A stretch of 40,614 bases of DNA, taken from the IMG/VR virus record IMGVR_UViG_3300028830_000010, one strand, 5' to 3'. This stretch comes from a virus. The notes under the pieces are model-generated. The model searched no databases, was not told the DNA's origin, and saw only the letters and a program-made list of their open reading frames with translations. Shown here one piece after another: positions 5,511-19,132 of the stretch. The translations under genes were made by a program, and so were the position numbers. Position 1 is the stretch's first letter; each line of letters starts with the position of its first letter.

Positions 5511-5580
5511 CGCCTAGCCCTAATGCGCCGTGACAGGGCGCATTGTGGCAATAGTGCCGATAACAGATAGGGGAAATATC

Positions 5581-6237
5581 ATGCAAGCTCAATTCTCAAT
5601 ACCGCAACACGCCATTAAAGCCGTAGCCTATGCTATGGCCGTCAAGGATAGACGCTACTACCTGAACGGAATGCTGATCCAGCATAACGGGCAGGAAACG
5701 CGCCTGATCGCCACGGATGGGCATCGGCTTCATGCTTGCATCGTCAAGCACAAAGATGCAGAGCTTTTGCCGGAAATCATTGAAGCCATCATGCCGGATT
5801 CGCTGGTGAAAACCATTCTCAAGGCAAAGGCGCGTTGCCGTGGAACGTGGGGCATTCAAATAAACATTGACGGCACGCGCATTCAGGCTGATCTGTTTGA
5901 CGGAACAAGCGCCAGCGCAACGGCCATTGACGGTAAGTTCCCCGACTATCACCGCGTTATCCCGACTGAGTTTTCCGGCGTGGTCGCGCAATACAACCCG
6001 GAATATCTGCTCGATGCAGAACTCGGCGCACGCGACTGGTACAACAGTATCAAAGCAACCTTTGCCTTCAGCCATAACGGCGACTCGGCTGGCGGTATCG
6101 CGCTTGATGGATTTGTTGCCATCGTTATGCCGCGCCGTGTCGATGCTGCGCTTAACGCGCCTGATGCAGCATTTAAGCTTTACCCGGCCAAAGCTGAACC
6201 GCAAGCCATTGCCGAGGAGCAGCAATCATGCAAGTAA
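5581..6237 (+). CDS. DNA polymerase III beta-clamp (DnaN)-like protein, N-terminally truncated (218 aa)
   Basis: RYYLNGML, ATDGHRL and DGKFPDYHRVIP match the conserved stretch of bacterial DnaN starting in its second domain. ATG 5581 follows AGGGGA. Confidence 0.8.
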   Translation: MQAQFSIPQHAIKAVAYAMAVKDRRYYLNGMLIQHNGQETRLIATDGHRLHACIVKHKDAELLPEIIEAIMPDSLVKTILKAKARCRGTWGIQINIDGTRIQADLFDGTSASATAIDGKFPDYHRVIPTEFSGVVAQYNPEYLLDAELGARDWYNSIKATFAFSHNGDSAGGIALDGFVAIVMPRRVDAALNAPDAAFKLYPAKAEPQAIAEEQQSCK

Positions 6238-7528: not shown

Positions 7529-7580
7529 TATCAGATTAGCGTCTCGGATTGGCTTTGATTCTTAAAGTATATTAGCGTTT
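7529..7580. repeat. Inverted repeat A (left copy), 50/52 identical to the reverse complement of 17606-17657
   Basis: Base-by-base alignment gives mismatches only at 7563 and 7566. Contains ACGCTAAT twice. Confidence 0.9.
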
Positions 7581-7600
7581 GCTGCGCCGGTTTACACGAC

Positions 7601-7625
7601 TCAAATAGGGTGTCTACTTCTAGTT
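7601..7625. repeat. Inverted repeat B (left copy), 25/25 reverse complement of 19029-19053
   Basis: TCAAATAGGGTGTCTACTTCTAGTT. The flanking bases on both sides mismatch. Confidence 0.9.
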
Positions 7626-7635
7626 GGCAGGCAAA
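7623..7635 (-). repeat. Terminal YAAC half-site of the left cassette array (TTTGCCTGCCAAC in gene orientation)
   Basis: Perfect 13-bp reverse complement of 9023-9035, which is the GTTGG box upstream of the methyltransferase. Confidence 0.75.
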
Positions 7636-7719
7636 AGCTCAACCTGCACCGCCGTCTCGCCAGCGCCGACTTTTGCGTCCTCGAACAGCCGGGGCTGTGC
7701 GTAGGCTTGCTCTATGCGG

Positions 7720-8289
7720 TTATGGCATGTCCGGCCATCTGAAATTGCGCTTACTCTCATTGTCGGAACCGTCAAGGATTTGCAGGTTCGATTCAACGTG
7801 CAACCCGCAAACGATCTTGCTTTGAAGCGGCACGATATGGTCAACGTGCTTGCGGATTCCTGTTTCTTCCTGCTGGCGCATTGCTTCGGCGTAGATTCTG
7901 ATAATTGCGTCCTGATCCGCCCATGATGGAGTAGCGCGCAGTTTCGCGGCCTTCCTTCTTGCATCAACTGCATTCCGCTTCGGTCGGTTCGCTCGCGCCC
8001 ACTCCAAATGCTTTGCAGCGCGACGCTCTTTATTCTTTTCGTTATGCCGCTTCTGTGCTGCTTTGGTGGCCTCCGGGTTAGCCTTTGCCCATTCGATAGC
8101 CCGTTGCTTATTACGTTCCTTGTTTTGCTCGTACCAAGCATGGTTCGCCTCTCTATGGCATTCCTTGCACCAATTAACGTGGCCATCCGCATATCGCTCA
8201 TTCTTGCTGAAACTCGATAGCGGCTTGTCCTGCCGGCACTTCTTGCATGTTTTCATTTGCCCCGAAAAGCGTATTTTGACGATACGCAT
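7720..8289 (-). CDS. HNH endonuclease
   Basis: C-terminal HVDHIVPL...GLHVESNLQIL...DNESK HNH motif, N-terminal CxxC...CxxC, and a K/R/A-rich repeat region. Start is uncertain (8289 or 8256). Overlaps the methyltransferase 3' end. Confidence 0.8.
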   Translation of the reverse strand: MRIVKIRFSGQMKTCKKCRQDKPLSSFSKNERYADGHVNWCKECHREANHAWYEQNKERNKQRAIEWAKANPEATKAAQKRHNEKNKERRAAKHLEWARANRPKRNAVDARRKAAKLRATPSWADQDAIIRIYAEAMRQQEETGIRKHVDHIVPLQSKIVCGLHVESNLQILDGSDNESKRNFRWPDMP

Positions 8290-9010
8290 TATATATTCTT
8301 TCGCACGCGATGTCAAAGTATTTGCGCTCGCGCTCGATGCCGGTGAATGCTTTGCCTTGTTGAACGCAGGCTACGCCAGTAGTCCCAGACCCCATATATG
8401 CGTCAATGCACCCTCTATCAAAAACACAACTTGAAATAATTGGAGAAACCAACCTTATTGGGTATGGGCAAGGGTGGTCGTTATCGCTATCCTTCTCAAT
8501 CCCCGGCGGAATTCTCCAAACAGATAGCATCTTGTTGTTTTCGTTATTCCATTTGTCCGGTTTTCCGAATCCAAACCAATATTCATGCGATGGTGCGTAT
8601 CTTCCGCAGTTCAACGCCATAGACCCACCGCGATCCCAAACAACCTCAGCAAACAGTGGCGCACGATAGAATTGCAGTGGATGTATGCCAAAGCCATCCC
8701 GGTATCTTGTTTTATGGTTGATCCAAACAACAGGGGCAACAGACAAACAAAGATTCAAAAAATCCTGTTGCTGTTCTTGGTATTCAATTTCATCCATCTG
8801 ATCGAAGTAACCGCCTTGTTTGTCCATCCATGCGTTTTTTCCTGTTTTTCTCTCCGCATGTAATCCAGATGGAGAGGCCGAAGGGTTTAGCGTGTTGTAA
8901 GGTGGAGAACAAACAACAGCATCATGCTTCGGCAGCAGCGGCAGCACTTCGCGGCAGTCTCCGTGGTACAGCGTGCAATTCCCGATTGTCACTTTCTCAG
9001 CCATCATCAC
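8198..9010 (-). CDS. DNA methyltransferase, beta-class N4-C/N6-A (SPPY)
   Basis: Motif IV (VVCSPPY) lies near the N-terminus and motif I (DAYMGSGTTG) near the C-terminus. This is the circular permutation typical of the N6_N4_Mtase family. Confidence 0.85.
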   Translation of the reverse strand: MMMAEKVTIGNCTLYHGDCREVLPLLPKHDAVVCSPPYNTLNPSASPSGLHAERKTGKNAWMDKQGGYFDQMDEIEYQEQQQDFLNLCLSVAPVVWINHKTRYRDGFGIHPLQFYRAPLFAEVVWDRGGSMALNCGRYAPSHEYWFGFGKPDKWNNENNKMLSVWRIPPGIEKDSDNDHPCPYPIRLVSPIISSCVFDRGCIDAYMGSGTTGVACVQQGKAFTGIERERKYFDIACERIYNAYRQNTLFGANENMQEVPAGQAAIEFQQE

Positions 9011-9022
9011 TCCGTTTCACCG

Positions 9023-9101
9023 TTTGCCTGCCAACCCGTCGCTCAAGCGGGACGCGCCGCGATAAAGCCGCGTCGCGCCCCTTAGCTATGCGTTAGATTG
9101 C
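9023..9101 (-). repeat. attC-like structured repeat E7
   Basis: Gene orientation: GCAATCTAAC (stop TAG follows), hairpin GGGGCGCGACGCG / CGCGGCGCG-T-CCC, CTT-G-AGC, then GTTGGCAGGCAAA 12 nt before ATG 9010. Confidence 0.75.
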
Positions 9102-9331
9102 TCAACCCACCCATCAGGGCCATACCACCGTCCGCCAGCGTCGTAGTAATCCTCGGTGGTGGTATCTCCAGCGTGCCACGGGCATGCGCTCTTAATGGTT
9201 GTTGTGCCAACTGGCATGGTGCCATCCCATGCAACCTTCCTAGTGCGAGGGCAGCCGGTGTGCGTGCACCGCAATCTAACCATTTTGTCGAGCGGACGGG
9301 AATAAGGCCCGCTCGTTTTCTCAACCGTCAT
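9086..9331 (-). CDS. Hypothetical Cys-rich small protein (81 aa, or 65 aa from ATG 9283)
   Basis: ORF-track ORF. The first 16 codons lie in the loop of repeat E6, so the internal ATG 9283 (ATGGTTAGA) may be the true start. Confidence 0.45.
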   Translation of the reverse strand: MTVEKTSGPYSRPLDKMVRLRCTHTGCPRTRKVAWDGTMPVGTTTIKSACPWHAGDTTTEDYYDAGGRWYGPDGWVEQSNA

Positions 9332-9365
9332 CGCGCCCGCCGCTCACAAAACCGTTAGAAGGCAT
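9271..9365 (-). repeat. attC-like structured repeat E6 (best-paired copy)
   Basis: ATGCCTTCTAAC-GG-TTTTGT-GAGCGG-CGGG, 35-nt loop, CCCG-T-CCGCTC-G-ACAAAA-TG-GTTAGATTGC. Unpaired T and G on the 3' arm. Confidence 0.8.
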
Positions 9366-10219
9366 CAGTCGCCGCAGTAGCACGGTATCGCCTCGTCGTC
9401 ATAGCCGAAAGCATCATCTTGCTCGGCTGCGTTTTGGTGCATTTGCGCGTAGCTCGCCCGGTCGGAACGAAACCGCGCCCCGCTTGGCTTGGAAGCCAAA
9501 GCCAAAGCCAAAGCCTCCATCCTTGCCCACCATACCGCCCGCTCCGGCTTTTGATTTATCAGCGACAGCACCTGCCCCGCTGGTTTCAAAAAGCACAGGT
9601 CACAGTTCCCGGCTAGGGTGCGCCCCTTGTAGGTCGGGAGTTCAAGGCCGAACGGTTGCGCTTCCCAAAACGCTTGGATTGTTTCAACCGTCACCCCATC
9701 ATCGGCCAGCGGCATGCACATCGTTTCCTTCACCGTTTCAGGGCTTGGCCTGGCGCGGATTTTCGCAACCCGCCTTTGCTCGTCGGCGCGTATCCCGACA
9801 AACTGATTCCAGCCGTCGCCCTCACCCCACCCCAAAGACCGCAGGTACTTGTGCATCGTGCGAATCTTCAGTTCCACCGTGCAAAACCTCGTTACCGGGT
9901 TCGGCAAGTAATTCCGCTTGCGTATCGCCGCCTCGAAAGGCTCTCCGTCGCGGCTCGCCGTGGCGTAATCCACCACCGCAAAGCGCGGATCGTCGGCGCG
10001 GAACTCAACCCAAACAATCGGCACGCTCCAATGCGCGCCGCAGTCACGCACAAAGCGCAGCGTGGCTTCCTCTTCCTTGCCGGTGTTGGCGAAGCAAACC
10101 ACAGCATCAGCCGGCAGTCCGCCGTTGCTCTGTAGCACCCGCCAAAGCATGTAGGCGCTCGTTCGCCCTCCACTGAAACTCAGGCATGTTGGCTCTGTAA
10201 TCTTGTATGGGTCGCGCAT
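9365..10219 (-). CDS. PAPS-reductase-family PP-loop enzyme
   Basis: N-terminal PP-loop (LSFSGGRTSAYM), 284 aa, C-terminal CYCGD. The substrate cannot be inferred. Confidence 0.8.
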   Translation of the reverse strand: MRDPYKITEPTCLSFSGGRTSAYMLWRVLQSNGGLPADAVVCFANTGKEEEATLRFVRDCGAHWSVPIVWVEFRADDPRFAVVDYATASRDGEPFEAAIRKRNYLPNPVTRFCTVELKIRTMHKYLRSLGWGEGDGWNQFVGIRADEQRRVAKIRARPSPETVKETMCMPLADDGVTVETIQAFWEAQPFGLELPTYKGRTLAGNCDLCFLKPAGQVLSLINQKPERAVWWARMEALALALASKPSGARFRSDRASYAQMHQNAAEQDDAFGYDDEAIPCYCGD

Positions 10220-10224
10220 CGCGT

Positions 10225-10303
10225 ATGCCTTCTAACAACTCATTCCAGCGGACCGCCCGCGATAGGGCCGCGTGCGGCCCCTGAATTCGGGTCGTTCGGC
10301 GTC
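10225..10303 (-). repeat. attC-like structured repeat E5
   Basis: GACGCCGAAC, hairpin GGGGCCGCACGCG / CGCGGGCGG-T-CC, then GTTAGAAGGCAT 5 nt before ATG 10219. Overlaps the 3' end of ORF 10240-10509. Confidence 0.7.
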
Positions 10304-10509
10304 AAATGGAACATCGCAAAATTCCGCCGTTCCTCGTGATACCTTGCCTGATCTGCGTCTCCCTCCTCGTCGCTCCATGCGGCTCGCTGCTCTTCATGGT
10401 GTGCTGCTATACGTTGCAGTACGTCGCGGAGCGTGTCTCGTGCTCGACATGCGCAGTTTCTGCAATCGCAATCTGGCACTGAATCGTGCGACTCAATCAA
10501 GTCGTCCAT
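10240..10509 (-). CDS. Hypothetical protein (89 aa)
   Basis: ATG 10509 follows GGGAGGCTGACTTT. The track start at 10587 lies inside repeat E4. Confidence 0.45.
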   Translation of the reverse strand: MDDLIESHDSVPDCDCRNCACRARDTLRDVLQRIAAHHEEQRAAWSDEEGDADQARYHEERRNFAMFHLTPNDPNSGAARGPIAGGPLE

Positions 10510-10513
10510 AAAG

Positions 10514-10843
10514 TCAGCCTCCCGAAGACGGCGCAGGCGACGCCGAACCCGGCGTTGCAGGGGAGATGGACGAGCTACGCTCGCCATCCCCCTGACCTTG
10601 CACGTTCGACCCCTTAGCCGCCGTGCCGCCAGCGCCGACTTCCGCCTCGCGTATGTACCGCAGTGCAGTTTCGTGTCTGCTTTCTCCGGGCCACTTGTTG
10701 CCTACCGCCATAATCAGTTCGTCGTATTTCACTCTCTCGGCCTGTGCCACTTCGTTCGCTACCTGTTGCAGCGCCAATAGCAAGCTCCGGCTGTTCGGCA
10801 TACCAAGGTTGGCCATAATCGCCTTGTATCTTTCGTCTGTCAT
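10514..10843 (-). CDS. Hypothetical protein (109 aa). The C-terminal ~30 aa are read-through of repeat E4
   Basis: ATG 10843 follows GGAGAAACGAC. The low-complexity tail (GDGERSSSISPATPGSASPAPSSGG) is encoded by the repeat. Confidence 0.5.
   Translation of the reverse strand: MTDERYKAIMANLGMPNSRSLLLALQQVANEVAQAERVKYDELIMAVGNKWPGESRHETALRYIREAEVGAGGTAAKGSNVQGQGDGERSSSISPATPGSASPAPSSGG
10539..10613 (-). repeat. attC-like structured repeat E4
   Basis: GGGGTCGAAC, hairpin GGGGGATGG-CGAGC / GCTCG-T-CCATC-T-CCCC, then GTTCGGCGTC. Confidence 0.7.
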
Positions 10844-10864
10844 GTCGTTTCTCCGTTGGTGTCC

Positions 10865-10925
10865 GGGGTCGAACCCGGCAGTCCAGCGGACGCCGTACCG
10901 GCGCCGCTGACTTTTGCGTTATGCC
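10865..10925 (-). repeat. attC-like structured repeat E3
   Basis: GGCATAAC (contains the upstream TAA stop), AGCGG-CGCCG / CGGCG-T-CCGCT-G-GAC, then GTTCGACCCC. Confidence 0.7.
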
Positions 10926-11260
10926 TTTGCACCAATCCACTCCGCGAAACTCAGGCCGCAGTCCGCACGCAACCACTCGCGGTATCGGCGCTGGCTTCTG
11001 GTCAGTTTCTTCTCGGGCGGTTTCGCCGGGCTATTCTTCGCCACGAAGTCAATTCCGGCGCGTGTCACGAAAAACACAGGGCTTCCGCCTGACAGTGCGT
11101 TTCCTGCGCGTTCTGTCATCAGTCCTTCTGCAACCAGTTCACGGCACAGTGGGAAGTCATCTGTACCTTCTCCGGTCACGAAGTGGTTCCGGTATTGCCG
11201 GCCCGCGCCGTACTGGTCTAGCCCAAGGCTGTGTTGCAGTATGTGCAGCTTGCTATTCAT
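10919..11260 (-). CDS. Hypothetical protein (113 aa)
   Basis: ATG 11260 follows GGAGAAAAGGAT. No recognised motif. Confidence 0.5.
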   Translation of the reverse strand: MNSKLHILQHSLGLDQYGAGRQYRNHFVTGEGTDDFPLCRELVAEGLMTERAGNALSGGSPVFFVTRAGIDFVAKNSPAKPPEKKLTRSQRRYREWLRADCGLSFAEWIGAKA

Positions 11261-11301
11261 ATCCTTTTCTCCGTTGTTTTCGCCGAGGCATAACCCGTTG
11301 G

Positions 11302-11583
11302 TCAAGCCGACCGTCCGCCTGCGGCGTCCGTCGGCTTACCGCTGGCGTTCGACCCCTTCCGCCCGATTGCCCGTTTCGCGGTTTCGATGTCCACCGCGCG
11401 TGCACCGGGAACGGAGAAGGGAGGCTCCAGGTTGGTCAACGCTAGGTCGCCATCCTTCAGCGCGCGGCCGCGCTTCCGTTCGTCCCACTCGATAACGCGA
11501 GTGCATTTGTAGTGCTTCATGAACTTCTTGCCGTTGGTCGTTTTCCCGGAGCCCGGCGGCCCGTAAATAATCACAATGCCCAT
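11302..11583 (-). CDS. Small P-loop NTPase-like protein (93 aa)
   Basis: MGIVIIYGPPGSGKTT Walker A at the N-terminus. ATG 11583 follows AAGGAGCG. The upstream part of the track ORF is repeat E2. Confidence 0.55.
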   Translation of the reverse strand: MGIVIIYGPPGSGKTTNGKKFMKHYKCTRVIEWDERKRGRALKDGDLALTNLEPPFSVPGARAVDIETAKRAIGRKGSNASGKPTDAAGGRSA

Positions 11584-11584
11584 G

Positions 11585-11983
11585 TCAATTCGCTCCTTCG
11601 GGGGTTGTTGTGCCAGGGGTCGAACCCGGCGTTCGTGTGGGACCGGACGAAGCTGCGCTTCGCCGGCCCCACAACTCTGCGTTAGGTGCCTGCTTCCGTG
11701 CCCACCTGTCACGCCGCAACTTGATCGTTTCCTGTATCAGCGCATATGCGCCGCAGTCATGCGGGGCCAGCGATCCAGCGGCGAGCAGATCGGAGTACAG
11801 GTCGTCGCACAATTCACGCAGCCGCTCAATCTCTCTTGCTGCCGCGTGTTCGCGCTCTGTTTTCAGTCGGCGCGAGTCGAGCAGTTCTGCAATCAGTTCG
11901 TCATGCGGTCGCGCTTGCTTGCATTGCTGCTCTGGCCGTGGTTCTACCGCAGGCCCGGTTTCGTTCTTTTCTTCCATCGTCAT
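11585..11983 (-). CDS. Hypothetical protein. The C-terminal ~35 aa are read-through of repeat E2
   Basis: ATG 11983 or 11977 follows GGAG. The tail PNAELWGRRSAASSGPTRTPGSTPGTTTPEGAN is encoded by the repeat. Confidence 0.5.
   Translation of the reverse strand: MTMEEKNETGPAVEPRPEQQCKQARPHDELIAELLDSRRLKTEREHAAAREIERLRELCDDLYSDLLAAGSLAPHDCGAYALIQETIKLRRDRWARKQAPNAELWGRRSAASSGPTRTPGSTPGTTTPEGAN
11616..11690 (-). repeat. attC-like structured repeat E2
   Basis: GGCACCTAAC, hairpin GGGGCCGG-CGAAGC / GCTTCG-T-CCGG-T-CCC, then GTTCGACCCC. Confidence 0.7.
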
Positions 11984-12008
11984 CTCCAAAAGTCGGCGCT
12001 CGCAATAC

Positions 12009-12081
12009 GGCACCTAACAGTTCATTCAACCCGGACTGGCCGAAAAGCCGGCCAGCCGGTTAATTCAAGCGTTAGCCGTCA
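12009..12081 (-). repeat. attC-like structured repeat E1
   Basis: TGACGGCTAACG, AACCGG-CTGGCCG / CGGCCAG-T-CCGG-G-TT-G-AAT, then GTTAGGTGCC. Confidence 0.75.
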
Positions 12082-12097
12082 TAGCAGCCAATCAGCA

Positions 12098-12274
12098 TTA
12101 CCCCTCATACTTCCCCCAAGCCATCCGATACGATGCAAAGTGTTTCTGCACATGCCTCGGCAGTTTGTCACGCTGTACCCACAGCGATACATTTTGCTGC
12201 GTATAGCCTAGCTCCTGCGCTGCTTTTTTCTGCGTGCCGAAATATCGGACAAGCTGTTTAGGTGTGTAGTTCAT
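12098..12274 (-). CDS. Cro/YdaS-like helix-turn-helix regulator (58 aa)
   Basis: MNYTPKQLVRYFGTQKKAAQELGYTQQNVSLWVQRDKLP is a classic short HTH. It is the first gene of the minus-strand arm, next to divergent promoters. Confidence 0.6.
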   Translation of the reverse strand: MNYTPKQLVRYFGTQKKAAQELGYTQQNVSLWVQRDKLPRHVQKHFASYRMAWGKYEG

Positions 12275-12285
12275 GGCTTCATTAA

Positions 12286-12303
12286 AGCACATATTTTTGT
12301 GCT
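12286..12303. promoter_or_regulatory. Operator-like palindrome AGCACA-N6-TGTGCT
   Basis: Perfect 6-bp arms abutting the -35 hexamer of the rightward promoter, 12 nt upstream of the cro-like ATG. Confidence 0.4.
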
Positions 12304-12331
12304 TGACAAGTATTTTGTTTGCGGCTATGCT
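12303..12331 (+). promoter_or_regulatory. Sigma70-like rightward promoter, TTGACA-17 nt-TATGCT
   Basis: Consensus -35 and a good -10, facing the 12510-17562 plus-strand arm. Confidence 0.5.
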
Positions 12332-12509
12332 TGAACTGTCCGGCGCAATTCTGACCTGCGACTGGATAGCATGTGATAGGCGACGCCACTCTGCTTGTCC
12401 TGAAAAGGCTCCAGTGCAGATTAACATGCCACGACACACCACGGCGCAACCGTGCTTTTGATGTGGGCCGGAGAGCGTAACCGGCGCATACAACTACAGA
12501 AGGACTGTC

Positions 12510-12707
12510 ATGCACTGCCTGATTTTCGAACAGCTAGAGCCGGTTCCAGTCCGCCAGTTTAAACACGGCGAGAAGGATTACACCGAGTACGCCGCTAATT
12601 TCCGCTTCGTGAAGCGGCTGGACAATGTGCGCTGGAAGGGCCTCGCATGGGACGAGGCTAAGAAACTTGTGGCGCATCCTGTGCTGCAATTTATCGGAGA
12701 GGAATGA
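12510..12707 (+). CDS. Hypothetical protein (65 aa)
   Basis: ATG follows GAAGGA. First gene of the rightward arm. Confidence 0.5.
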   Translation: MHCLIFEQLEPVPVRQFKHGEKDYTEYAANFRFVKRLDNVRWKGLAWDEAKKLVAHPVLQFIGEE

Positions 12708-12952
12708 TGGAACTCGAAAGCTTGAACATTACAAGGGTATCGTGGGGCGATAATGCCGGAAAACTGGACGGCAACATCATGTTCAAAAACCCGAAGGGAA
12801 AAGTTCAAATTATTCTGAGTGATTCAGCGGCGCAACGTATCCTAGAGATATGCGCCGAAGGACTTGTCGAAACCGCGAAGACGGTCGCTAACGAATTGAC
12901 AGCCGAGATTATCTCTCACGGCGGGAATTTACTGATGGTGGATAAAGAATGA
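12704..12952 (+). CDS. Hypothetical protein (82 aa)
   Basis: ATGA-coupled to the previous ORF. Confidence 0.5.
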   Translation: MMELESLNITRVSWGDNAGKLDGNIMFKNPKGKVQIILSDSAAQRILEICAEGLVETAKTVANELTAEIISHGGNLLMVDKE

Positions 12953-13020
12953 TGGACGTCGACTACGTAATCCTGTTCTGCATCGTCAGCTTCATGGCTG
13001 GCTATTACCTCGGAGAGTGA
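12949..13020 (+). CDS. Small hydrophobic peptide (23 aa)
   Basis: Hand-translated MMDVDYVILFCIVSFMAGYYLGE. Fills the gap between coupled genes. Confidence 0.2.
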   Translation: MMDVDYVILFCIVSFMAGYYLGE

Positions 13021-13021
13021 A

Positions 13022-13519
13022 ATGAGCTTACCCGCGCTGTACCAGCTTACCCGCGAATATCAAGAGGCATACGAGACTCTGGCTGATATGAATCTGCCGG
13101 AAGAAGTGATGCACGATACGCTCGAAGGATTGCAGGGCGATATCGAGAAGAAGGCCGAGAACGTCGCTTGCGTCATCCGCAACTTCGAGAGCATGGCCGA
13201 GCAGATCAAGCAAGCCGAGAAGCAACTGAAGCAACGCCGTGACGCATACGAACACAGGGCCGAACATATCCGCGCTTACCTGCTGCACAACATGCAGGCT
13301 TGCGGCATCAGCAAGATAGAATCGCCGTGGTTCAAGATTGCCGTGCGCGACAATCCCGAATCGGTGGAGATTACCGGCGCTGTCCCGCCTGAATACATGC
13401 GCCAGCCTGAACCGCCGCCGCCAGCACCTGACAAGGCCATGATTAAGGCCGATCTCAAGGACGGCAAGCAGTTTGACTTTGCGCGGCTTACGCGCACTCA
13501 ACGTGTGGAGATCAAATGA
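13022..13519 (+). CDS. Gp157-family protein (recombination-module accessory)
   Basis: The N-terminal pattern (YQLTREYQEAYETL...LEGLQGDIEKKAENVA) and C-terminal part (FKIAVRDNPESVEI) match the Siphovirus Gp157 family. Sits immediately upstream of ERF. Confidence 0.65.
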   Translation: MSLPALYQLTREYQEAYETLADMNLPEEVMHDTLEGLQGDIEKKAENVACVIRNFESMAEQIKQAEKQLKQRRDAYEHRAEHIRAYLLHNMQACGISKIESPWFKIAVRDNPESVEITGAVPPEYMRQPEPPPPAPDKAMIKADLKDGKQFDFARLTRTQRVEIK

Positions 13520-14214
13520 ACGAGAATCTAGGGGTCTATAAAGCCATTGCAGCAGTAACCGCAGCAATGGCCAAGGAAGGTATCGGCAAGGGCCGGAAGA
13601 ACCAGCAGCAGGGCTATTCCTTCCGAGGCATTGACGACGTGTATAACGTTCTGTCTGGCATGTTGGCAACTGCCGGCCTGTGCATCATCCCTCGCATTCT
13701 GTCCCGCGTGTGTGAGGAACGGACGACGAAAAGCGGCAGCGCGTTGTTCTACGTGACAGTAGAAGCGGAATATGATTTGGTTTCCGCCGAGGATGGAAGC
13801 AAGCATACCGCCAAGGTATTTGGCGAAGCAATGGACAGCGCCGACAAGGCCACAAACAAAGCCATGAGCGCGGCCTACAAATACATGGCGTTCCAAACCT
13901 TCGCCATACCGACAGAGGGCGACAACGACGCCGACTCTGTAACGCATGTTGTTGTACCAGCAGCAAAGGCTCCAACGCCATACGACTACGACGCCGCCCT
14001 AGATGCCATGCGCGCCGCCAAGTCCGAAGCGCAGCTTAAGGCCGCATACGTTCCAGCCGCCAAGCGCGCCAAGACTGACGGCGACGCTGCCATGCTGGAC
14101 GTGCTGACCAAGGTCAAGGATGAGTGTAAGGAGGCGATGGCTGGAAGCATTACTGGCGATCCGAGCGAAGGCGATCTTAACATTCCAGCATTGGGCGGAA
14201 AGGCGGTTATATGA
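13516..14214 (+). CDS. erf: ERF-family single-strand annealing recombinase
   Basis: The NQQQGYSFRGIDDVYNVLSGMLA and KATNKAMSAAYKYMAFQTFAIPTEG blocks are typical of ERF. Confidence 0.85.
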   Translation: MNENLGVYKAIAAVTAAMAKEGIGKGRKNQQQGYSFRGIDDVYNVLSGMLATAGLCIIPRILSRVCEERTTKSGSALFYVTVEAEYDLVSAEDGSKHTAKVFGEAMDSADKATNKAMSAAYKYMAFQTFAIPTEGDNDADSVTHVVVPAAKAPTPYDYDAALDAMRAAKSEAQLKAAYVPAAKRAKTDGDAAMLDVLTKVKDECKEAMAGSITGDPSEGDLNIPALGGKAVI

Positions 14215-14477
14215 GCAAGCACATAATTAATGCAGATTCAGATATTTCTATCCCACACGAATACGCAGGATTAAGAGCGCTATGGGCATCCGTAATGCTC
14301 TTGGCCATAAGTGATGCAAAGGACATGGCGGCGACATGCAAGGCAAACAGGCGTAGCGCAAAATCTTGGATTGAAAGCGATAGGACTGACATCCCAAATG
14401 CGTTCGTGAATATTTACGATTTCTTAAACATTTCTCCGCATCATATTCGTAATTCGATCAAAATGAAGGACAAATAA
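14211..14477 (+). CDS. Hypothetical protein (88 aa), AT-rich
   Basis: ATGA-coupled ORF with noticeably lower GC than its neighbours. Confidence 0.5.
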   Translation: MSKHIINADSDISIPHEYAGLRALWASVMLLAISDAKDMAATCKANRRSAKSWIESDRTDIPNAFVNIYDFLNISPHHIRNSIKMKDK

Positions 14478-14478
14478 C

Positions 14479-14793
14479 ATGCACCCTGAAACCAGACAGC
14501 TACGCGAGGACGAAAACGAGTACCAGCGCGGACTCGATGCCGAGGATGAACGGCAGCGTGCAATCGAAATGGAGATATCGTTTCTGCGCGTGGATATCGC
14601 CGTGAAGAACCAGCATCATCAATTCGTTGAGGATTGGTATGCTGATCCGGCTGGCGATCTTGCCGAGATCATCCGGCAAGCGTGCTTACTTAATCGCGCT
14701 CAGACCGGCGTACTCGGCGGCTGGCTGCATACCGTGGTCGAGAATAGAATCAGGCAGGTTGCCGAGATTACCGTGGATCGGAGGCTGAAATGA
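14479..14793 (+). CDS. Hypothetical protein (104 aa)
   Basis: Packed ORF with no recognised motif. Confidence 0.5.
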   Translation: MHPETRQLREDENEYQRGLDAEDERQRAIEMEISFLRVDIAVKNQHHQFVEDWYADPAGDLAEIIRQACLLNRAQTGVLGGWLHTVVENRIRQVAEITVDRRLK

Positions 14794-14951
14794 ACCGACT
14801 ATATCGTTACTGGCTTATATTCCTTCGCTATGCAAACGCTATCGACCTGCACAGCGCGAAGGCATCCGGCAACCACGACGTAGCTGCGTGGTGCAGACTG
14901 CGGATATCGCAGATTGATAACGATATAGATATACTGCGGATGCAGGGGTGA
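14790..14951 (+). CDS. Small hypothetical ORF (53 aa)
   Basis: Hand-translated. ATGA-coupled. Its TGA stop lies inside the first box of repeat E8. Confidence 0.35.
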   Translation: MNRLYRYWLIFLRYANAIDLHSAKASGNHDVAAWCRLRISQIDNDIDILRMQG

Positions 14952-15014
14952 CGGCTAACGTGGATGTCACCGGGCCGCGCTTGCGCGGCTCCGGTGGACA
15001 GCAGGGTTCGACGG
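14949..15014 (+). repeat. attC-like structured repeat E8
   Basis: TGACGGCTAACG (same 12 nt as E1), CACCGG-GCCGCG / CGCGGC-T-CCGGTG-G-ACA, then GTTCGACGGC. Confidence 0.75.
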
Positions 15015-15045
15015 CACAACCGCCGTCTTCGGGAGACTGACTTTT

Positions 15046-15237
15046 ATGAAAAGCATAGGTACAAGCGAAATATCAGCATGCCCTTTCTGCGGATTTGATG
15101 ATTTCCAGATTGCCGGAACCGCTTCAATGATGTTTTCGATTACCTGCCCAGACTGTGGTTGTATTGGCCCGCAGGCAGGAATTATTACCGATGCCATAGA
15201 ACGATGGAACGACCGGGCTTTGACGCCGAACGATTAG
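15046..15237 (+). CDS. lar: Lar-family restriction alleviation protein
   Basis: CPFCG...CPDCGC...AIERWNDR matches the Lar-family signature. 63 aa. Confidence 0.75.
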   Translation: MKSIGTSEISACPFCGFDDFQIAGTASMMFSITCPDCGCIGPQAGIITDAIERWNDRALTPND

Positions 15238-15296
15238 CTTGAGGGGCTGGACGCGGCTTTATTGCGGCCAGTCCCTCTCCAAGCGCCAGTTGGGCG
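15222..15296 (+). repeat. attC-like structured repeat E9
   Basis: GACGCCGAAC (overlaps the end of lar), GAGGG-CTGG...CCAG-T-CCCTC with loop GACGCGGCTTTATTGCGG (homologous to the E7 loop), then GTTGGGCG. Confidence 0.7.
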
Positions 15297-15310
15297 CGGA
15301 AAGGTTGAAG

Positions 15311-15640
15311 ATGGACTTGTGTGGACATAAAGGGTTTGCTGGGCCGAGTGCGTGCATCCTTGAGGAAGGGCACTACGGAAACCACCAATACGGCGATATT
15401 GCCACGGCCTACGAGGTCGAACTGCGAAAAGACGCGGAGAGATACAGGTTCCTGAGAGAGGCAGCTCATGACGCGGCAAAAATAGAAGCCTTGAATATGG
15501 CGAACAGAGAGCCGCAAACCCCAGCGGAGTTTGATGCAGCAGTGGATATAGCAATGACGACGCCCAACGGACAAGTTGAGGGGGCCGAAGGCTGCTTGCA
15601 GCCGGAGGCTCCCTCTCGAACGCCGGGTTCGGCGGATTGA
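15311..15640 (+). CDS. Hypothetical protein (109 aa). The C-terminal tail is read-through of repeat E10
   Basis: First ATG after repeat E9. The tail ...EGAEGCLQPEAPSRTPGSAD is encoded by the repeat. Confidence 0.45.
   Translation: MDLCGHKGFAGPSACILEEGHYGNHQYGDIATAYEVELRKDAERYRFLREAAHDAAKIEALNMANREPQTPAEFDAAVDIAMTTPNGQVEGAEGCLQPEAPSRTPGSAD
15561..15634 (+). repeat. attC-like structured repeat E10 (most divergent hairpin)
   Basis: CGCCCAAC, GAGGGGGCC..GGCTG / CAGCC..GGCTCCCTC, then GTTCGGCG. Confidence 0.6.
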
Positions 15641-15642
15641 CT

Positions 15643-15915
15643 ATGCCTAAGAACTACGGCGGTGACGATAAATTGACGCGCGGTTTGTTGCTCGGTGCGA
15701 TGCTGGCAAAAGGCGAGGGCGTGACAAGCGCCATGATCCACAGGCGCTTCGGGGTTTCGAGAGCAACTGCTAAGCGCGACATGAACGTGATTGAGGCGAC
15801 GTTGCCTGTTGAAGCGGAAGTGAAGGGCACGAGGGTAACGCTGTCGCTGGTGACGCCGAACGCCCAAGTAACCGGCGCTTCGCCGGCCCTTATGGCGAAG
15901 CGTCCGGTTGACTGA
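15643..15915 (+). CDS. Small winged-helix/HTH DNA-binding protein (90 aa)
   Basis: MIHRRFGVSRATAKRDMNVIE resembles HTH_11/DeoR-type N-terminal domains. The track start at 15637 is TTG. The ORF end lies in repeat E11. Confidence 0.5.
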   Translation: MPKNYGGDDKLTRGLLLGAMLAKGEGVTSAMIHRRFGVSRATAKRDMNVIEATLPVEAEVKGTRVTLSLVTPNAQVTGASPALMAKRPVD

Positions 15916-15931
15916 CGTGTTAGCGGGCATT
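15854..15931 (+). repeat. attC-like structured repeat E11
   Basis: CGCCGAAC, AACCGG-CGCTTCGCC / GGCGAAGCG-T-CCGGTT-G-ACT, then GACGT-GTTAGCGGGCATT. Confidence 0.8.
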
Positions 15932-15946
15932 TTTACGGGAGGCGAT

Positions 15947-16219
15947 ATGAGTGAAACCTACACCCCGGCGAACGGAACCGAAGGCGTTGCATTCTTCGAT
16001 TGCTGGTGCCGGCGCTGCTCCAGGGACAAGGCCATGCGCGAAGGGGCCGACTTCGACGAGTGTGACGACAACGAACTGTGCGAGATCATCGCGGCCAGCT
16101 TCCGCGGGCCGGTGAAGGAATGGATCGAGGACGATTCCGGCCCGCGCTGCACGGCGTTTGTGGAAGCCGGCAACATCGTGCCCGAAGTTGATACGCTGAC
16201 AGGGGACTTGTTCGCATGA
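15947..16219 (+). CDS. Hypothetical Cys-rich protein (90 aa)
   Basis: ATG 15947 follows GGGAGG. Confidence 0.5.
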   Translation: MSETYTPANGTEGVAFFDCWCRRCSRDKAMREGADFDECDDNELCEIIAASFRGPVKEWIEDDSGPRCTAFVEAGNIVPEVDTLTGDLFA

Positions 16220-16953
16220 CGCCGCTTGTCAAAGAGATGGTGTCGCTTGACCCGGAAGTGGCGCTGTCGTGCATCTGGTTCGACCTGGGCACGCTGCCGC
16301 GCTACACGTTCGCATGGAGCGAACTGCCGGGGAACCGTCTGCCATTCGAGAAGTGCGCAATCGTCGGGCGTGACAGCAAGGGCGACAAGTTCTTGGTGTG
16401 GGCTGCGCAGGGCGACGAATCGACGATCCTGCTGTTTGCCTGCGCGATGATGCCCGACCATTGGACGCGGACGCCTGTCTTTGCCGTTGTGATGGCCGAA
16501 GGCGGTTGCCGCATCGGCGACGTGGAAGGCGAAGAAGAAATCACAAAGGACCAGGCCGCGCCGATAGTTGGCGTGTTGGCCGAGTTCCTGAAAGCGGCGA
16601 ACCCGCCCGGCTACCGTGCGACGGAGAAGGCCAACAGCATCACGAACAAGCGCCGCACCGCGAAAGGCAAAGCACCGTTGATCTACGACTGGCATACGGT
16701 CGTTATTGAGCCAGCGAAGCCGAGCGGCGAATGCCTGGGCGGGACGCATGCCAGCCCGAGGCAGCACGAGCGGCGCGGGCACTGGCGGACATGCGCGAAC
16801 GGTAAGCGCGTTTGGGTGCGGAACTGCACGGTGGGCGACGCTTCGCGGGGCACGGTTTTCAAGGACTACAAAGTCGACGACGGCGGGACGGCAATGCCCG
16901 CTAACGCAAAAGTAACCGGCGTGCCGGCATTACCGGCACGTCCGGTTGACTGA
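16216..16953 (+). CDS. Hypothetical protein (245 aa)
   Basis: ATGA-coupled. The C-terminus ...ANAKVTGVPALPARPVD runs through repeat E12. Confidence 0.55.
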   Translation: MTPLVKEMVSLDPEVALSCIWFDLGTLPRYTFAWSELPGNRLPFEKCAIVGRDSKGDKFLVWAAQGDESTILLFACAMMPDHWTRTPVFAVVMAEGGCRIGDVEGEEEITKDQAAPIVGVLAEFLKAANPPGYRATEKANSITNKRRTAKGKAPLIYDWHTVVIEPAKPSGECLGGTHASPRQHERRGHWRTCANGKRVWVRNCTVGDASRGTVFKDYKVDDGGTAMPANAKVTGVPALPARPVD

Positions 16954-16968
16954 CGGGTTAGAGGGCAA
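16893..16968 (+). repeat. attC-like structured repeat E12
   Basis: AATGCCCGCTAAC, AGT-AACCGG-CGTGCCGG / CCGGCACG-T-CCGGTT-G-ACT, then GACGG-GTTAGAGGGCAA. Confidence 0.8.
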
Positions 16969-16977
16969 CTGCACAAC

Positions 16978-17562
16978 ATGGGAAAGTACCAAATTATCTA
17001 CGCCGACCCGCCTTGGGCTTACCAAGGGAATGCGACCGACCAGAAGAACAACAGGGGCGGGGCAGCGGCGCATTACGATGTGATGACCGTGGAAGATATT
17101 GCAGCATTGCCAGTGCGCGAGGTTGCAGCAGACGACAGCCTGCTTTTTATGTGGGGCGCGTGGCCGAAACTGTTTGAAGCGAAGACCGTGATGGACGGTT
17201 GGGGGTTTGAATTTAAGACTTGCGCCTTTGTGTGGGTGAAAACGAACAAGCGCACGAACCCCGACCAAGCCAGCTTTTTCCCTGTTGATAGCTTCGACAG
17301 CTTTTGGGGGATGGGGCGATGGACAAGGGCGAACACGGAATTTTGCCTTTTGGGTACGAGGGGGAAGCCGAAACGGGAAAGCGCGGGGGTGCACCAGATC
17401 ATTTACGCACCGATAGCAGAGCACTCGCGCAAGCCGGACGAAACGCGGGACAGGATTTTGGCCCTAGCTGGTGACGTGCCAAGGGTGGAACTTTTCGCCC
17501 GACGCACGGCACCAGGTTGGGATTTGTGGGGGAACGAGGTGGAGTGTGACCTTGCCCTCTAA
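16978..17562 (+). CDS. MT-A70-family DNA N6-adenine methyltransferase
   Basis: IIYADPPW catalytic motif. 194 aa. Confidence 0.85.
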   Translation: MGKYQIIYADPPWAYQGNATDQKNNRGGAAAHYDVMTVEDIAALPVREVAADDSLLFMWGAWPKLFEAKTVMDGWGFEFKTCAFVWVKTNKRTNPDQASFFPVDSFDSFWGMGRWTRANTEFCLLGTRGKPKRESAGVHQIIYAPIAEHSRKPDETRDRILALAGDVPRVELFARRTAPGWDLWGNEVECDLAL

Positions 17563-17563
17563 C
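17552..17563 (+). repeat. Terminal YAAC half-site of the right cassette array (TTGCCCTCTAAC)
   Basis: Perfect 12-bp reverse complement of 16957-16968. Contains the TAA stop of the MT-A70 gene. Confidence 0.75.
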
Positions 17564-17605
17564 GTGAAATAGGGAGCCTAAAATTCCAGACAAATGGCGC
17601 TCAGT

Positions 17606-17657
17606 AAACGCTAATATACGTTTAGAATCAAAGCCAATCCGAGACGCTAATCTGATA
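17606..17657. repeat. Inverted repeat A' (right copy)
   Basis: 50/52 reverse complement of 7529-7580. Followed within a few nt by an ATG, as on the left side. Confidence 0.9.
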
Positions 17658-18250: not shown

Positions 18251-18441
18251 CAACCGGAATGGAATTGCTAATTAAGAGTGGGGCGACCATTGAAGATATG
18301 ATTGAAGATGCCAAAAAAGAAGGTGCGAACGAACTTCGCAAGACATTCAATTACTGCCCGCGTTGTGGCAAGCCTATGCCACATGAGCATAACTTTGTGC
18401 ATACTTGCACTCCGCCAAATTGGAATAGAAGCGGGTATTAA
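18247..18441 (+). CDS. Hypothetical protein (64 aa) with CxxC...HxC
   Basis: ATGA-coupled ORF. Confidence 0.45.
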   Translation: MTTGMELLIKSGATIEDMIEDAKKEGANELRKTFNYCPRCGKPMPHEHNFVHTCTPPNWNRSGY

Positions 18442-18497
18442 GGTTGTCAATCCAGCGCAGAAAGTTGTCAATCCATAACTGAAAGGTTGTCAATGAA
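18441..18497 (+). repeat. Three direct repeats RGTTGTCAAT at 21-22 bp spacing
   Basis: AGGTTGTCAATCCA (18441), AAGTTGTCAATCCA (18462) and AGGTTGTCAATGAA (18484). The last copy overlaps ATG 18493. Confidence 0.7.
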
Positions 18498-18732
18498 CCA
18501 CAACGATCTGAACCAATGCCGCCTTGACGTTGAGCGGTTGCGGAAGGCGGCGGACAGGATGGTTGAATTGAAAGCCGAGAGGGACTTGGCTATATCCCAT
18601 CTGCGCTTCACGCTGCGCGAAATGCAGCGCATTGCAGACTGGCTGAAGCCGAATCAGGTAGGCATCGAAAACGATGGAATCCGCGCAAGAGCGCTCGACA
18701 CTTTACGCATGATGAAAGGGTGGATGAAATAA
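18493..18732 (+). CDS. Hypothetical protein (79 aa)
   Basis: The track ORF begins at TTG 18487. First ATG is at 18493. Confidence 0.45.
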   Translation: MNHNDLNQCRLDVERLRKAADRMVELKAERDLAISHLRFTLREMQRIADWLKPNQVGIENDGIRARALDTLRMMKGWMK

Positions 18733-19016
18733 TGGCAAAGAAAGTATTCGACGCGGTGGCCACAGTAGGCAAATACACCGACAAGCAAGGCAACGAGAAG
18801 AAGCGTTACACGAACGTCGGCGCGGTATTCGAGGACGACCAAGGGCGGCTCAGTATCAAGCTGGAGACTATCCCCGTCGGGCCGGAGTGGTCTGGCTGGA
18901 TAAGTCTATACCCGCCAAAGGAACGCGACGCAGCGCCAGTAACCGAGCATAGCGCGGCGAAGGCTAATGCGTATCAGAAGCAGCCGATTGATGTGGACGA
19001 AGATATTCCATTTTGA
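18732..19016 (+). CDS. SSB-like protein with acidic C-terminal tail (DVDEDIPF)
   Basis: The C-terminal D-E-D-I-P-F resembles the partner-binding tip of bacterial SSBs. TAATG junction with the previous gene. The fold cannot be verified from sequence. Confidence 0.45.
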   Translation: MAKKVFDAVATVGKYTDKQGNEKKRYTNVGAVFEDDQGRLSIKLETIPVGPEWSGWISLYPPKERDAAPVTEHSAAKANAYQKQPIDVDEDIPF

Positions 19017-19028
19017 TGTATGTGGTTT

Positions 19029-19053
19029 AACTAGAAGTAGACACCCTATTTGA
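19029..19053. repeat. Inverted repeat B' (right copy)
   Basis: AACTAGAAGTAGACACCCTATTTGA is the exact reverse complement of 7601-7625. Confidence 0.9.
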
Positions 19054-19132
19054 CGCAATACAAACCGTCACCAGCGCACCATCTGACTGTTTTGCAACAA
19101 TAATGGCAAACTAAAATTCCGGCAAAAGCATC

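Follow-up and report, generated by a model that had tools for sequence, protein, structure and literature searches.

The phage genome held in IMG/VR record IMGVR_UViG_3300028830_000010 raises the question of whether the repeats that separate the genes of its early region are attC sites of an integron, and whether the intervals between them are mobile gene cassettes. The window, i.e. the whole stretch of DNA analyzed here, comprises 40,614 nt and encodes small and large terminase subunits, an SU10-like capsid protein, tail and tail-fiber proteins, an endolysin-like glycosyl hydrolase, a D5-type primase/helicase, a DnaG-like primase, and HNH and GIY-YIG endonucleases. In its early region two gene arrays leave a fixed center in outward direction, and 13 repeat units separate 13 gene cassettes of one or two genes each, eight in the left array (units on the minus strand, 12077 down to 9029) and five in the right array (plus strand, 14953 to 16963), with a spacing of 0.2-1.4 kb in both. 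The original prediction, made from the letters of this stretch, proposed that each interval is an integron-type cassette that can circularize. Our analysis bears out this proposal, as the repeats match attC sites in sequence and structure, the array ends are homologous to sites adjacent to integron integrase genes (intI), and near-identical genomes differ by whole cassettes. The region is very probably a phage-borne integron platform without an integrase of its own, composed of attC arrays and host-type attI sites, in which cassettes have been gained, lost and moved.

Repeat units as attC sites and the ends of the cassettes

All repeat units share the layout ...YAAC-G-(~5 nt)-L arm-GC-rich hairpin-L arm with 1-2 extra bases-(~5 nt)-GTTRR..., with unit lengths between 56 and 123 nt. 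The AAC and GTT triplets are invariant in the 13 units of the window, at a mean column identity among units of 51%, and over 74 units they pair in 99.5% of cells. When the sites were rebuilt as they would stand in a circular cassette, they folded into a long R stem, an unpaired internal loop, an L stem with a bulged T and G on its 3' arm, and a variable loop, with fold z-scores of -4.6 to -9.5. Since RNAalifold, run on a MAFFT alignment, recovered the L stem only in part, the structure of the covariance model R1, which was made from the 13 phage units alone, was supplied by hand. On the window this model finds exactly the 13 units (41-77 bits; opposite strand below 15 bits). It also matches the aadA1 attC of plasmid R100, with 47 bits on the bottom strand (opposite aadA1) and 21.5 bits on the top strand, as well as seven attCs (37-52 bits) located beside an integron integrase gene in the bacterial metagenome-assembled genome (MAG) contig L152. 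The dfrA1 attC scored only 8 bits, so that R1 is not a universal attC model. In an alignment of 74 units from 15 sources, 93.9% of cells in the L stem and hairpin pair, there are 219 double compensatory changes, and the covariation score of 0.474 compares with 0.106 for shuffled and 0.04-0.07 for slid controls, a large margin even for an alignment that was fitted to the R1 model. In addition, the gene-sense strand is richer in G than in C (GC skew above zero in 68 of the 74 units, purine fraction 0.55). In attC sites, the bottom strand is known to be purine-rich and to carry its extrahelical bases on the arm that lies opposite to the cleaved AAC (Nivina et al., 2016; PMC5027507). By these features, namely the bulges opposite the AAC arm, the purine richness and the AAC triplet itself, the gene-sense strand of the phage units corresponds to the attC bottom strand. 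Judged by sequence and structure, the inter-gene repeats are genuine integron attC sites. In long units of about 120 nt, found in both phage and bacterial arrays (Table 1), the variable loop contains an ATG and a sequence resembling a ribosome-binding site, which may represent micro-open reading frames.

The ends of the cassettes provide independent information. The 11 coordinate pairs that had been listed as exact reverse complements were all recovered as such upon recomputation. The accompanying count of 11 perfect intervals out of 13 did not survive, because unit U3 (11288-11353) had been overlooked; perfect pairs of 8-13 nt are present in 12 of the 13 gene intervals and in the central segment. 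Of the two exceptions named at the time, the Lar interval remains the sole imperfect pair (5 nt perfect, 8/10 matching), whereas the P-loop interval is split by U3 into two cassettes, both with perfect pairs (GTTCGACCCCT/AGGGGTCGAAC, 11 nt, and GTTATGCCT/AGGCATAAC, 9 nt). The two boxes inside a single repeat had been described as far less complementary, and we likewise found matches of at most 6 nt within one unit, the R boxes of a unit in array form pairing over 3-6 nt only. A comparison with shuffled controls, suggested in the same context and carried out here by re-pairing, excludes chance as the source of the anchored complements. In the window and the relative L001 taken together, 20 of 26 cognate pairs are perfect over at least 8 nt compared to 23 of 757 non-cognate pairs, and 100,000 re-pairings never reached 20 (maximum 8). 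Pooled over 10 phage loci, complements of at least 8 nt occur in 45 of 67 cassettes and of at least 7 nt in 53 of 67, while 8 nt is reached by only 2.5% of non-cognate pairs and 20,000 shuffles gave at most 9. Beyond GTT/AAC the inverted termini differ from cassette to cassette, and the extension of the boxes is a property of the cassette, the one with a PAPS-reductase-like gene keeping GTTAGAAGGC at both 89% and 68% nucleotide identity.

attI sites and cassette turnover

At each array end, in the window as well as in its relatives, ...AAC is followed by a conserved site of about 35 nt with the consensus KWGAARTAGRSRSCCTAW. The window has three such sites, WL and WR at the ends of the left and right array and an empty one, W3, between the gene 18720-19016 and the D5 primase/helicase gene; a look-up of the 98-aa protein encoded upstream of W3 matched a 1-kb contig only. 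Scanning bacteria (one genome per species) for the 20-nt motif yielded 16 contigs, mostly MAGs labelled Gallionella, Sideroxydans, Rugosibacter, Casimicrobiaceae, Burkholderiales and Gammaproteobacteria, with about 4 random matches expected for a pattern in a scan of this size; the matches in Lachnospiraceae and Flavobacterium look like chance. In the MAG contigs L152, L158 (Sideroxydans), L153 and L163 (Rugosibacter) the motif lies about 100-150 nt upstream of intI and in the same direction. The encoded integrases share 55% identity with IntI1 and reach 486-500 bits with TIGR02249 (integron integrase; cut-off 265); the one of L152 has 500 bits, and the seven R1 matches of this contig lie upstream of the motif on the same strand. 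Moreover, the similarity between phage and bacterial sites reaches about 35 nt (CCTAAAAAATCsGGGAAAT), beyond the 20 nt that were searched. The position directly upstream of intI in Gallionella, Sideroxydans and Rugosibacter MAGs, together with this extended similarity, identifies the phage end site as an attI of a chromosomal integron family of betaproteobacterial type.

Since crossovers at G|TT and at AA|C predict the same flank complementarity, only comparative data and strand features decide the polarity of the cassettes. The original prediction had placed the crossover within or next to GTT and had named breakpoints in related genomes as a check. In near-identical genomes the breakpoints do fall exactly at the boxes; they lie in the AAC box and not at GTT, and the crossover on the gene-sense strand is AA|C, so that each gene has its own attC upstream rather than downstream. 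The clearest case is L168 (Logan SRR8427159), which is 99.5-100% identical to the window where aligned and shows three differences, all with junctions at ...AAC|. At J1 (GAGCAATCTAAC|TAGAAGTAGACACCC) the block of U8 and the methyltransferase/HNH genes is missing and the preceding cassette abuts attI. At J2 (GGGGTCGAAC|GACCCGAATTCAGGGG) the blocks U3+c3, U4+c4 and U5+c5 are missing, with U6 kept and U3 lost. At J3 (TGACGGCTAAC|GCATAGCTAAGGGG) a U8-like unit with a methyltransferase gene, a variant of the block missing at J1, opens the right array.

Similar events were found at W3 (GTGGTTTAAC|TAGAAGTAGAC), which is occupied in L155 and L083 by insertions that begin exactly after ...TTTAAC and consist of a unit and the gene downstream of it. 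The insert in L155 (JAJVIE010000007.1) comprises 314 nt, i.e. a unit, GTTATGC..., a gene and ...GCATAAC, between flanks that are both 96-98% identical to the window, and L083 carries a different cassette at the same point. Elsewhere, JAJVIE010000007.1 has flanks 83-99% identical to the window, two cassettes instead of five in the right array, and a different, apparently longer left array. In L122 the PAPS-reductase-like cassette, which is internal in the window, occupies the terminal position next to an attI-like site, and the end of the window's terminal cassette stands before it, indicating that cassette order has been permuted. In addition, the unit after cassette R4 is a different one in each of three cases (the window, L087 and L088/L089), and homology stops at ...CGCTAAC each time. 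The junctions in L168, L155, L083 and L122 are all within ...AAC|. What moved in these recent events is a single attC unit together with its downstream gene, with the joint at AA|C, as predicted from IntI chemistry on the bottom strand. A transposable element of the miniature inverted-repeat or insertion sequence type was considered and rejected, as there is no single common terminal inverted repeat and no target-site duplication at W3 beyond the shared AAC.

Gene polarity, proposed mechanism and rival explanations

In plasmid R100 (aadA1) and in the MAG integron L152 (alpha/beta hydrolase, GNAT and EamA proteins) the cassette genes lie on the strand opposite the R1 matches, their direction of reading being away from attI and intI. 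All family-assigned cassette genes of the phage and of its relatives are found on the strand of the R1 matches and read towards attI. The gene-sense strand is thus the attC bottom strand and the gene polarity the reverse of that in bacterial integrons, the cassettes pointing to attI with their own attC upstream. With this arrangement cassettes would be expressed by read-through from phage early promoters and not from the integron cassette promoter Pc, and a new insertion at attI comes to lie at the promoter-distal end of the operon. Here a cassette of ordinary bacterial type would be antisense to phage transcription, which suggests a separate, phage-adapted cassette pool.

In the mechanism that we propose, a host IntI would bind the folded gene-sense (bottom) strand of phage attC sites during infection and excise cassettes as circles by attC x attC recombination, and the circles would be reinserted at phage attI or attC sites. 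A circle with a complete attC, in which R' and R'' are paired, would be cut within R', the halves landing at opposite ends of a linear cassette with xxxxAA at one end and C-unit-GTTxxxx at the other; because the circle is cut inside its own R stem, the gene interval would begin with the reverse complement of its own end. The predicted circle junctions are TTTTGCCTGCCAA|CGCATAGCTAAGG for U8 with the methyltransferase and GACGCCGAA|CGCCAGCGGTAAG for U3-c5. The phage thus probably borrows the integron integrase of its host to swap cassettes. There is at most a slight chance that a circular phage genome with attC sites could itself integrate into the host integron as a giant cassette, which, if true, would account for the presence of a Cro/cI-type regulator in a phage without integrase.

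A tblastn search with IntI1 detected no integrase in the window or in any array-bearing relative, and the same search did detect tyrosine recombinases in three unrelated Erf-bearing loci. Likewise, Pfam and PHROG scans, which covered the large open reading frames (ORFs) and part of the small ones, revealed no integrase. A weak IntI1 match in L001 (E = 0.27) is not a recombinase according to Pfam.

Several observations weigh against our interpretation. No integrase was identified in the phage or its array-bearing relatives, and we infer the acting enzyme from site homology alone. The link to a host of Gallionellaceae/Rhodocyclaceae type is drawn from the attI motif in MAG contigs, about 4 of whose 16 matches are expected by chance, and the anti-defense interpretation leans on the family names of a few cassettes only. 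Moreover, the pairing of R boxes within units is weaker than in typical integron attCs. In divergent comparisons, the unit upstream of a common cassette is far less conserved than the GTT...AAC interval (U6 compared to the L122 unit, U12 to L087 3655-3710, U1 to L155 1574-1657). Some units look chimeric, such as U1, whose 5' half, unlike its 3' half, is identical to the L155 unit, and U12 and the L087 unit share compensating L-box changes with different loops. Since units are often chimeric, divergent genomes are ambiguous as to whether a unit travels with the upstream or the downstream gene, and it is the near-identical L168 that settles the matter for recent events. Hairpin-internal exchange, template switching, top-strand events and homologous or Erf-mediated recombination may therefore contribute too.

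Such observations would be expected if the phage's own recombination functions, either single-strand annealing by Erf/Gp157 or the HNH and GIY-YIG endonucleases, shuffled genes by using the hairpins as short homologies or break sites, in the manner of linker exchange in lambdoid and T4-type phages, the likeness to attC being incidental or ancestral. Erf and Gp157 do stand at the center of the module, no integrase is present in the phage, and the divergent breakpoints upstream of common cassettes fall inside units, some of them chimeric-looking. However, this explanation accounts neither for the cassette-specific flank complementarity of 8-13 nt nor for the constant AA|C junctions between non-homologous partners (unit and attI at J1 and W3), and it leaves unexplained the conserved host-type attI, the bulges and the strand skew, which IntI uses for strand choice. 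We therefore consider it quite improbable. Even less probable, in our opinion, is a passive capture of a host chromosomal integron fragment by illegitimate recombination, as in Vibrio anguillarum prophages, with neither ongoing recombination nor an adaptive role. The phage attC and attI sites do belong to the same family as those of bacterial MAG integrons, the phage has no integrase, and phages with fragments of sedentary integrons are documented (PMC9892861). However, all phage cassettes with identifiable genes have a polarity opposite to that of the bacterial integron with the same attI, and there are three separate attI sites in the phage, one of them empty. Precise cassette events between genomes that are 99.5-100% identical also speak against it, as do arrays that are co-linear with the early operons and carry genes beneficial to a phage (Lar, methyltransferases, Tad3).

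A further possibility is that the repeats serve as punctuation at the RNA level, i.e. as processing sites, stabilizers or terminators, with nothing mobile and the complementarity a by-product or a matter of chance. The units are indeed stable hairpins, located between cistrons in early operons that are polycistronic, and a role of attC sites as weak terminators is assumed (PMC9892861). Against this, none of the 13 units was called an intrinsic terminator, the terminator count equals the shuffled expectation, chance is excluded for the flank complements, the units cross-match real attC and attI sites, and the presence, absence and relocation of cassettes were observed directly. As the sole explanation RNA punctuation is thus refuted, and we give it hardly any credence, although the units may have a secondary role in RNA. 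We return to the reading of the region as an integron platform that depends on its host. Its fuller form, in which a phage lineage, probably on iron-oxidizing or related Burkholderiales, keeps integrase-less platforms that exploit host IntI to capture, discard and reorder cassettes of inverted polarity enriched in anti-defense genes, is the one that we cautiously favor.

Cassette contents, genome layout and known systems

The coordinates of the cassettes and of the features around them are compiled in Table 1.

Table 1. Cassettes, attI-like sites and other features of the early region; positions refer to the window unless a relative is named.
Feature	Position	Strand	Content and remarks	Boxes
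Inverted-repeat left arm, 59 nt	7529..7587		93% complementary; just outside left attI-like site	
attI-like site WL	7588..7625 (motif 7605-7625)	-	AA|C TAGAAGTAGACACCCTATTTGAGTCGTGTAAACCG; left array ends here	
Cassette L8	7624..9092	-	unit U8 (9029-9098)	GTTGGCAGGCAAA/TTTGCCTGCCAAC, 13 nt
L8 gene, HNH-motif ORF	7620-8201	-	motif read from sequence; Pfam and PHROGs no match	
L8 gene, N6_N4 DNA methyltransferase	8198-9010	-	family match	
Cassette L7	9093..9354	-	unit U7 (9274-9360, long variable loop), small ORF	GTTAGATTGC/GCAATCTAAC, 10 nt
Cassette L6	9355..10294	-	unit U6 (10230-10300), PAPS-reductase-like gene (9365-10219)	GTTAGAAGGCAT/ATGCCTTCTAAC, 12 nt
Cassette L5	10295..10604	-	unit U5 (10542-10610), small ORF; absent in L168	10 nt
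Cassette L4	10605..10918	-	unit U4 (10868-10924), small ORF; absent in L168	GTTCGACCCC/GGGGTCGAAC, 10 nt
Cassette L3	10919..11347	-	unit U3 (11288-11353), ORF of ~110-128 aa; absent in L168	GTTATGCCT/AGGCATAAC, 9 nt
Cassette L2	11348..11681	-	unit U2 (11619-11687), small protein with sub-threshold P-loop NTPase matches	11 nt
Cassette L1	11682..12071	-	unit U1 (12012-12077), ORF in 11585-12013	GTTAGGTGCC/GGCACCTAAC, 10 nt
Fixed central early region	12072..14958	both	bounded by inverted copies of TGACGGCTAAC	
Cro/cI-like regulator	12098-12493	-	in fixed central region	
Promoter-like site	12303-12331	+	in fixed central region; rightward reading	
Gp157	13022-13519	+	in fixed central region, after small plus-strand ORFs	
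Erf	13516-14214	+	in fixed central region, followed by three small ORFs	
Cassette R1	14959..15230	+	unit U9 (14953-15012), Lar restriction alleviation (15046-15237)	imperfect pair
Cassette R2	15231..15567	+	unit U10 (15225-15295), small ORF	GTTGGGCG/CGCCCAAC, 8 nt
Cassette R3	15568..15860	+	unit U11 (15562-15633), HTH_11 protein (15637-15915)	8 nt
Cassette R4	15861..16904	+	unit U12 (15855-15925), ORFs 15908-16219 and 16216-16953	GTTAGCGGGCATT/AATGCCCGCTAAC, 13 nt
Cassette R5	16905..17562	+	unit U13 (16899-16963), MT-A70 methyltransferase (16978-17562)	12 nt
attI-like site WR	17561..17598 (motif 17561-17581)	+	AA|C GTGAAATAGGGAGCCTAAAATTCCAGACAAATGG; right array ends here	
Inverted-repeat right arm, 59 nt	17599..17657		outside right attI-like site WR	
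attI-like site W3, empty	19022..19065 (motif 19029-19049)	+	GTGGTTTAA|C TAGAAGTAGACACCCTATTTGACGCAATACAAACC	
Long-unit subclass	L001 7554-7676, 3366-3488; L156 5840-5962; L088 6293-6413; L152 3858-3980			

As far as family matches tell, the identifiable cargo is weighted towards anti-restriction and anti-defense functions, with Lar, two orphan DNA methyltransferases and, in a relative, the Thoeris inhibitor Tad3. The latter is encoded in the first cassette of the L001 array (7839-8276, minus strand; Pfam E = 4e-39). L001 has 14 + 1 units, and its cargo is wholly different from that of the window save for the terminal methyltransferase; its central region encodes a pentapeptide-repeat protein (9037-9750, plus strand). 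Among 80 Erf-based relatives in IMG/VR, units were found only in L001 and L036, so that Erf is no marker of arrays.

Cassette L8 contains a perfect sigma-70 consensus (TTGACA, 17 nt, TATAAT; 12/12) at 8288-8316 on the minus strand, inside the 3' end of the methyltransferase gene and just upstream of the HNH-motif ORF. A cassette of L156 with the same boxes measures 842 nt compared to 1,413 nt in the window, and the sequence is common only near the two ends. This cassette may have received the HNH gene as an insertion with its own promoter. The homologue of cassette L6 in L125 (68% identity) retains its GTTAGAAGGC boxes. A PAPS-reductase homologue with 80% nucleotide identity is present in L123 (760-830), a viral contig without flanking attC units or AAC/GTT boxes, and the gene thus occurs in a non-cassette context as well. 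Some cassette ORFs extend beyond their own AAC box into the neighboring unit. The 245-aa ORF 16216-16953 (plus strand) has its end 48 nt into U13; alignments with its homologues in L087-L089 cover only residues 1-230 or 1-237, so that its C-terminal tail is encoded by the neighbor's attC and is altered by shuffling. ORF 10514-10843 (minus strand) reads through the entire U5, and in cassette R5 the stop codon TAA falls within the CTCTAAC box.

Conservation of the fixed central region in L155, L166 and L168 amounts to 98.5-100%, in contrast to the variable arrays on both sides. Its ends (12070-12081 and 14949-14960) are inverted copies of TGACGGCTAAC that are perfect complements of each other, form the first R box of both arrays and are kept in the near-identical relative L155. 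Such an arrangement could result if a single ancestral attI junction had been duplicated in inverted orientation, or if gene conversion had acted between the two ends. The 59-nt inverted-repeat arms bracket the 10-kb early module as a whole, and an independent assembly also breaks exactly at them (Logan contig L166, corresponding to window 7533-17653). The arms contain a repeated ACGCTAAT motif, and outward-facing genes follow on both sides; in the relative L084, the left flank is fused to an attI variant of the right type. The arms could serve as a shared promoter or operator, or the module could be inverted between them. The identical 11-nt TGACGGCTAAC boxes at both central ends, together with the arms beyond the attI sites, suggest an inverted duplication of the attI region.

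Outside the module, three tandem direct repeats of 21-22 nt (AAGGTTGTCAATCC...) that resemble iterons or operators occur at 18440-18503, between small genes located upstream of the primase module. ORF 5530-6237 (plus strand) shows a Pfam match (E = 4e-14) to the central domain of the sliding clamp, the DNA polymerase III beta subunit, and is overlapped by a 209-aa ORF on the minus strand, on which the other long ORFs of this block lie. An HNH_3 endonuclease (2880-3353, minus strand) adjoins the small terminase subunit and a GIY-YIG endonuclease (39470-40144, minus strand) a 739-aa structural gene; both are likely homing or packaging-associated nucleases that bear no relation to the cassette arrays. 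A megablast of the region against 50,697 GenBank phages gave no match, tblastn with the window primase found distant relatives only, and exact-pattern scans of IMG/VR for the inverted-repeat arm and the attI motif matched 1-2 contigs. An Rfam scan returned no family at gathering score, and a search for tRNA and tmRNA genes found none.

Among known systems, the closest are clusters of attC sites lacking integron integrases (CALINs), which Cury and colleagues, in the 2016 work on IntegronFinder, are said to have defined as at least two clustered attC sites with no integron integrase nearby. The window has 8 + 5 attCs, and intI was not found in its 40.6 kb; of the components of a complete integron, attI is present at the array ends, with no intI adjacent to it and no genes reading away from it. 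With CALINs the phage arrays have in common units that consist of R''/R' boxes (...AAC/GTT...), L boxes, a variable loop, extrahelical bases and a spacer that is unpaired; each cassette holds one or two genes, its flanks are complementary since the R box is split at the crossover, and no intI is nearby. Unlike CALINs, they are located in a phage and comprise three attI-type sites without intI and two divergent arrays around a fixed block of early genes. Their genes are all on the attC bottom strand, pointing to attI with their own attC upstream, and the flank complements measure 8-13 nt compared to about 7 nt, with within-unit pairing limited to 3-6 nt. The chromosomal integrons of the MAG contigs L152, L158, L153 and L163 resemble the phage arrays in the attI motif (AAC|KWGAAGTAGACACCCTAAAA...), in an attC family that is found by R1, and in the orientation of the units relative to attI. 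In contrast to the phage, they encode IntI directly beyond attI, their cassette genes (hydrolase, GNAT, EamA) occupy the top strand, with a reading direction away from attI, and flank complementarity in L152 is weaker (0-11 nt). A 2010 study by Arbiol and colleagues is reported to describe mobile promoter-early stem-loop (PeSL) cassettes in T4-type phages, promoter-plus-hairpin units that are exchanged by homologous recombination. Similar to the arrays described here, these are said to place small early accessory genes between repeated hairpins and to be shuffled among related phages; unlike the window, they reportedly lack AAC/GTT boxes, cassette-specific flank complementarity, attI and any connection to IntI.

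Integrons are bacterial stockpiles of resistance genes and, as recognized more recently, of anti-phage defense genes. The phage arrays would be the mirror image of such defense stockpiles, with early accessory and anti-restriction genes kept as cassettes by a phage that apparently relies on the integrase of its host. If true, this would provide a concrete mechanism for the fast modular turnover of phage counter-defense genes, and the remaining small ORFs without assigned function would be candidate anti-defense genes. It would also imply a cassette pool of opposite polarity that is not readily expressed from Pc in bacterial integrons, which bears on the origin and circulation of cassettes. All components are defined in sequence, and recombination between attC and attI is directly testable with a specific IntI.

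A full-text literature search found no report of phage attC arrays other than that of Qi, Rajabal, Ghaly, Tetu and Gillings in Front Microbiol (Qi et al., 2023; PMC9892861), who described 17 phage CALINs, each with at least two attCs. These integrase-less clusters came from isolate genomes of both temperate and virulent phages; methyltransferase cassettes were considered as possible anti-restriction cargo, and IntI1 recombined phage attCs in an assay (Qi et al., 2023; PMC9892861). The cassettes of these phage CALINs are in the usual direction or mosaic, whereas those of the window, which has 13 attCs and three attI sites in 40 kb, are of inverted polarity. Host-type attI sites in integrase-less phages, empty as opposed to occupied sites, turnover at the population level and inverted polarity are not described there (Qi et al., 2023; PMC9892861). 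What is new beyond the known phage CALINs is thus the presence of attI without an integrase, one site being empty, the organization of both early operons by 13 cassettes, the inverted polarity of these cassettes, and their turnover at AA|C.

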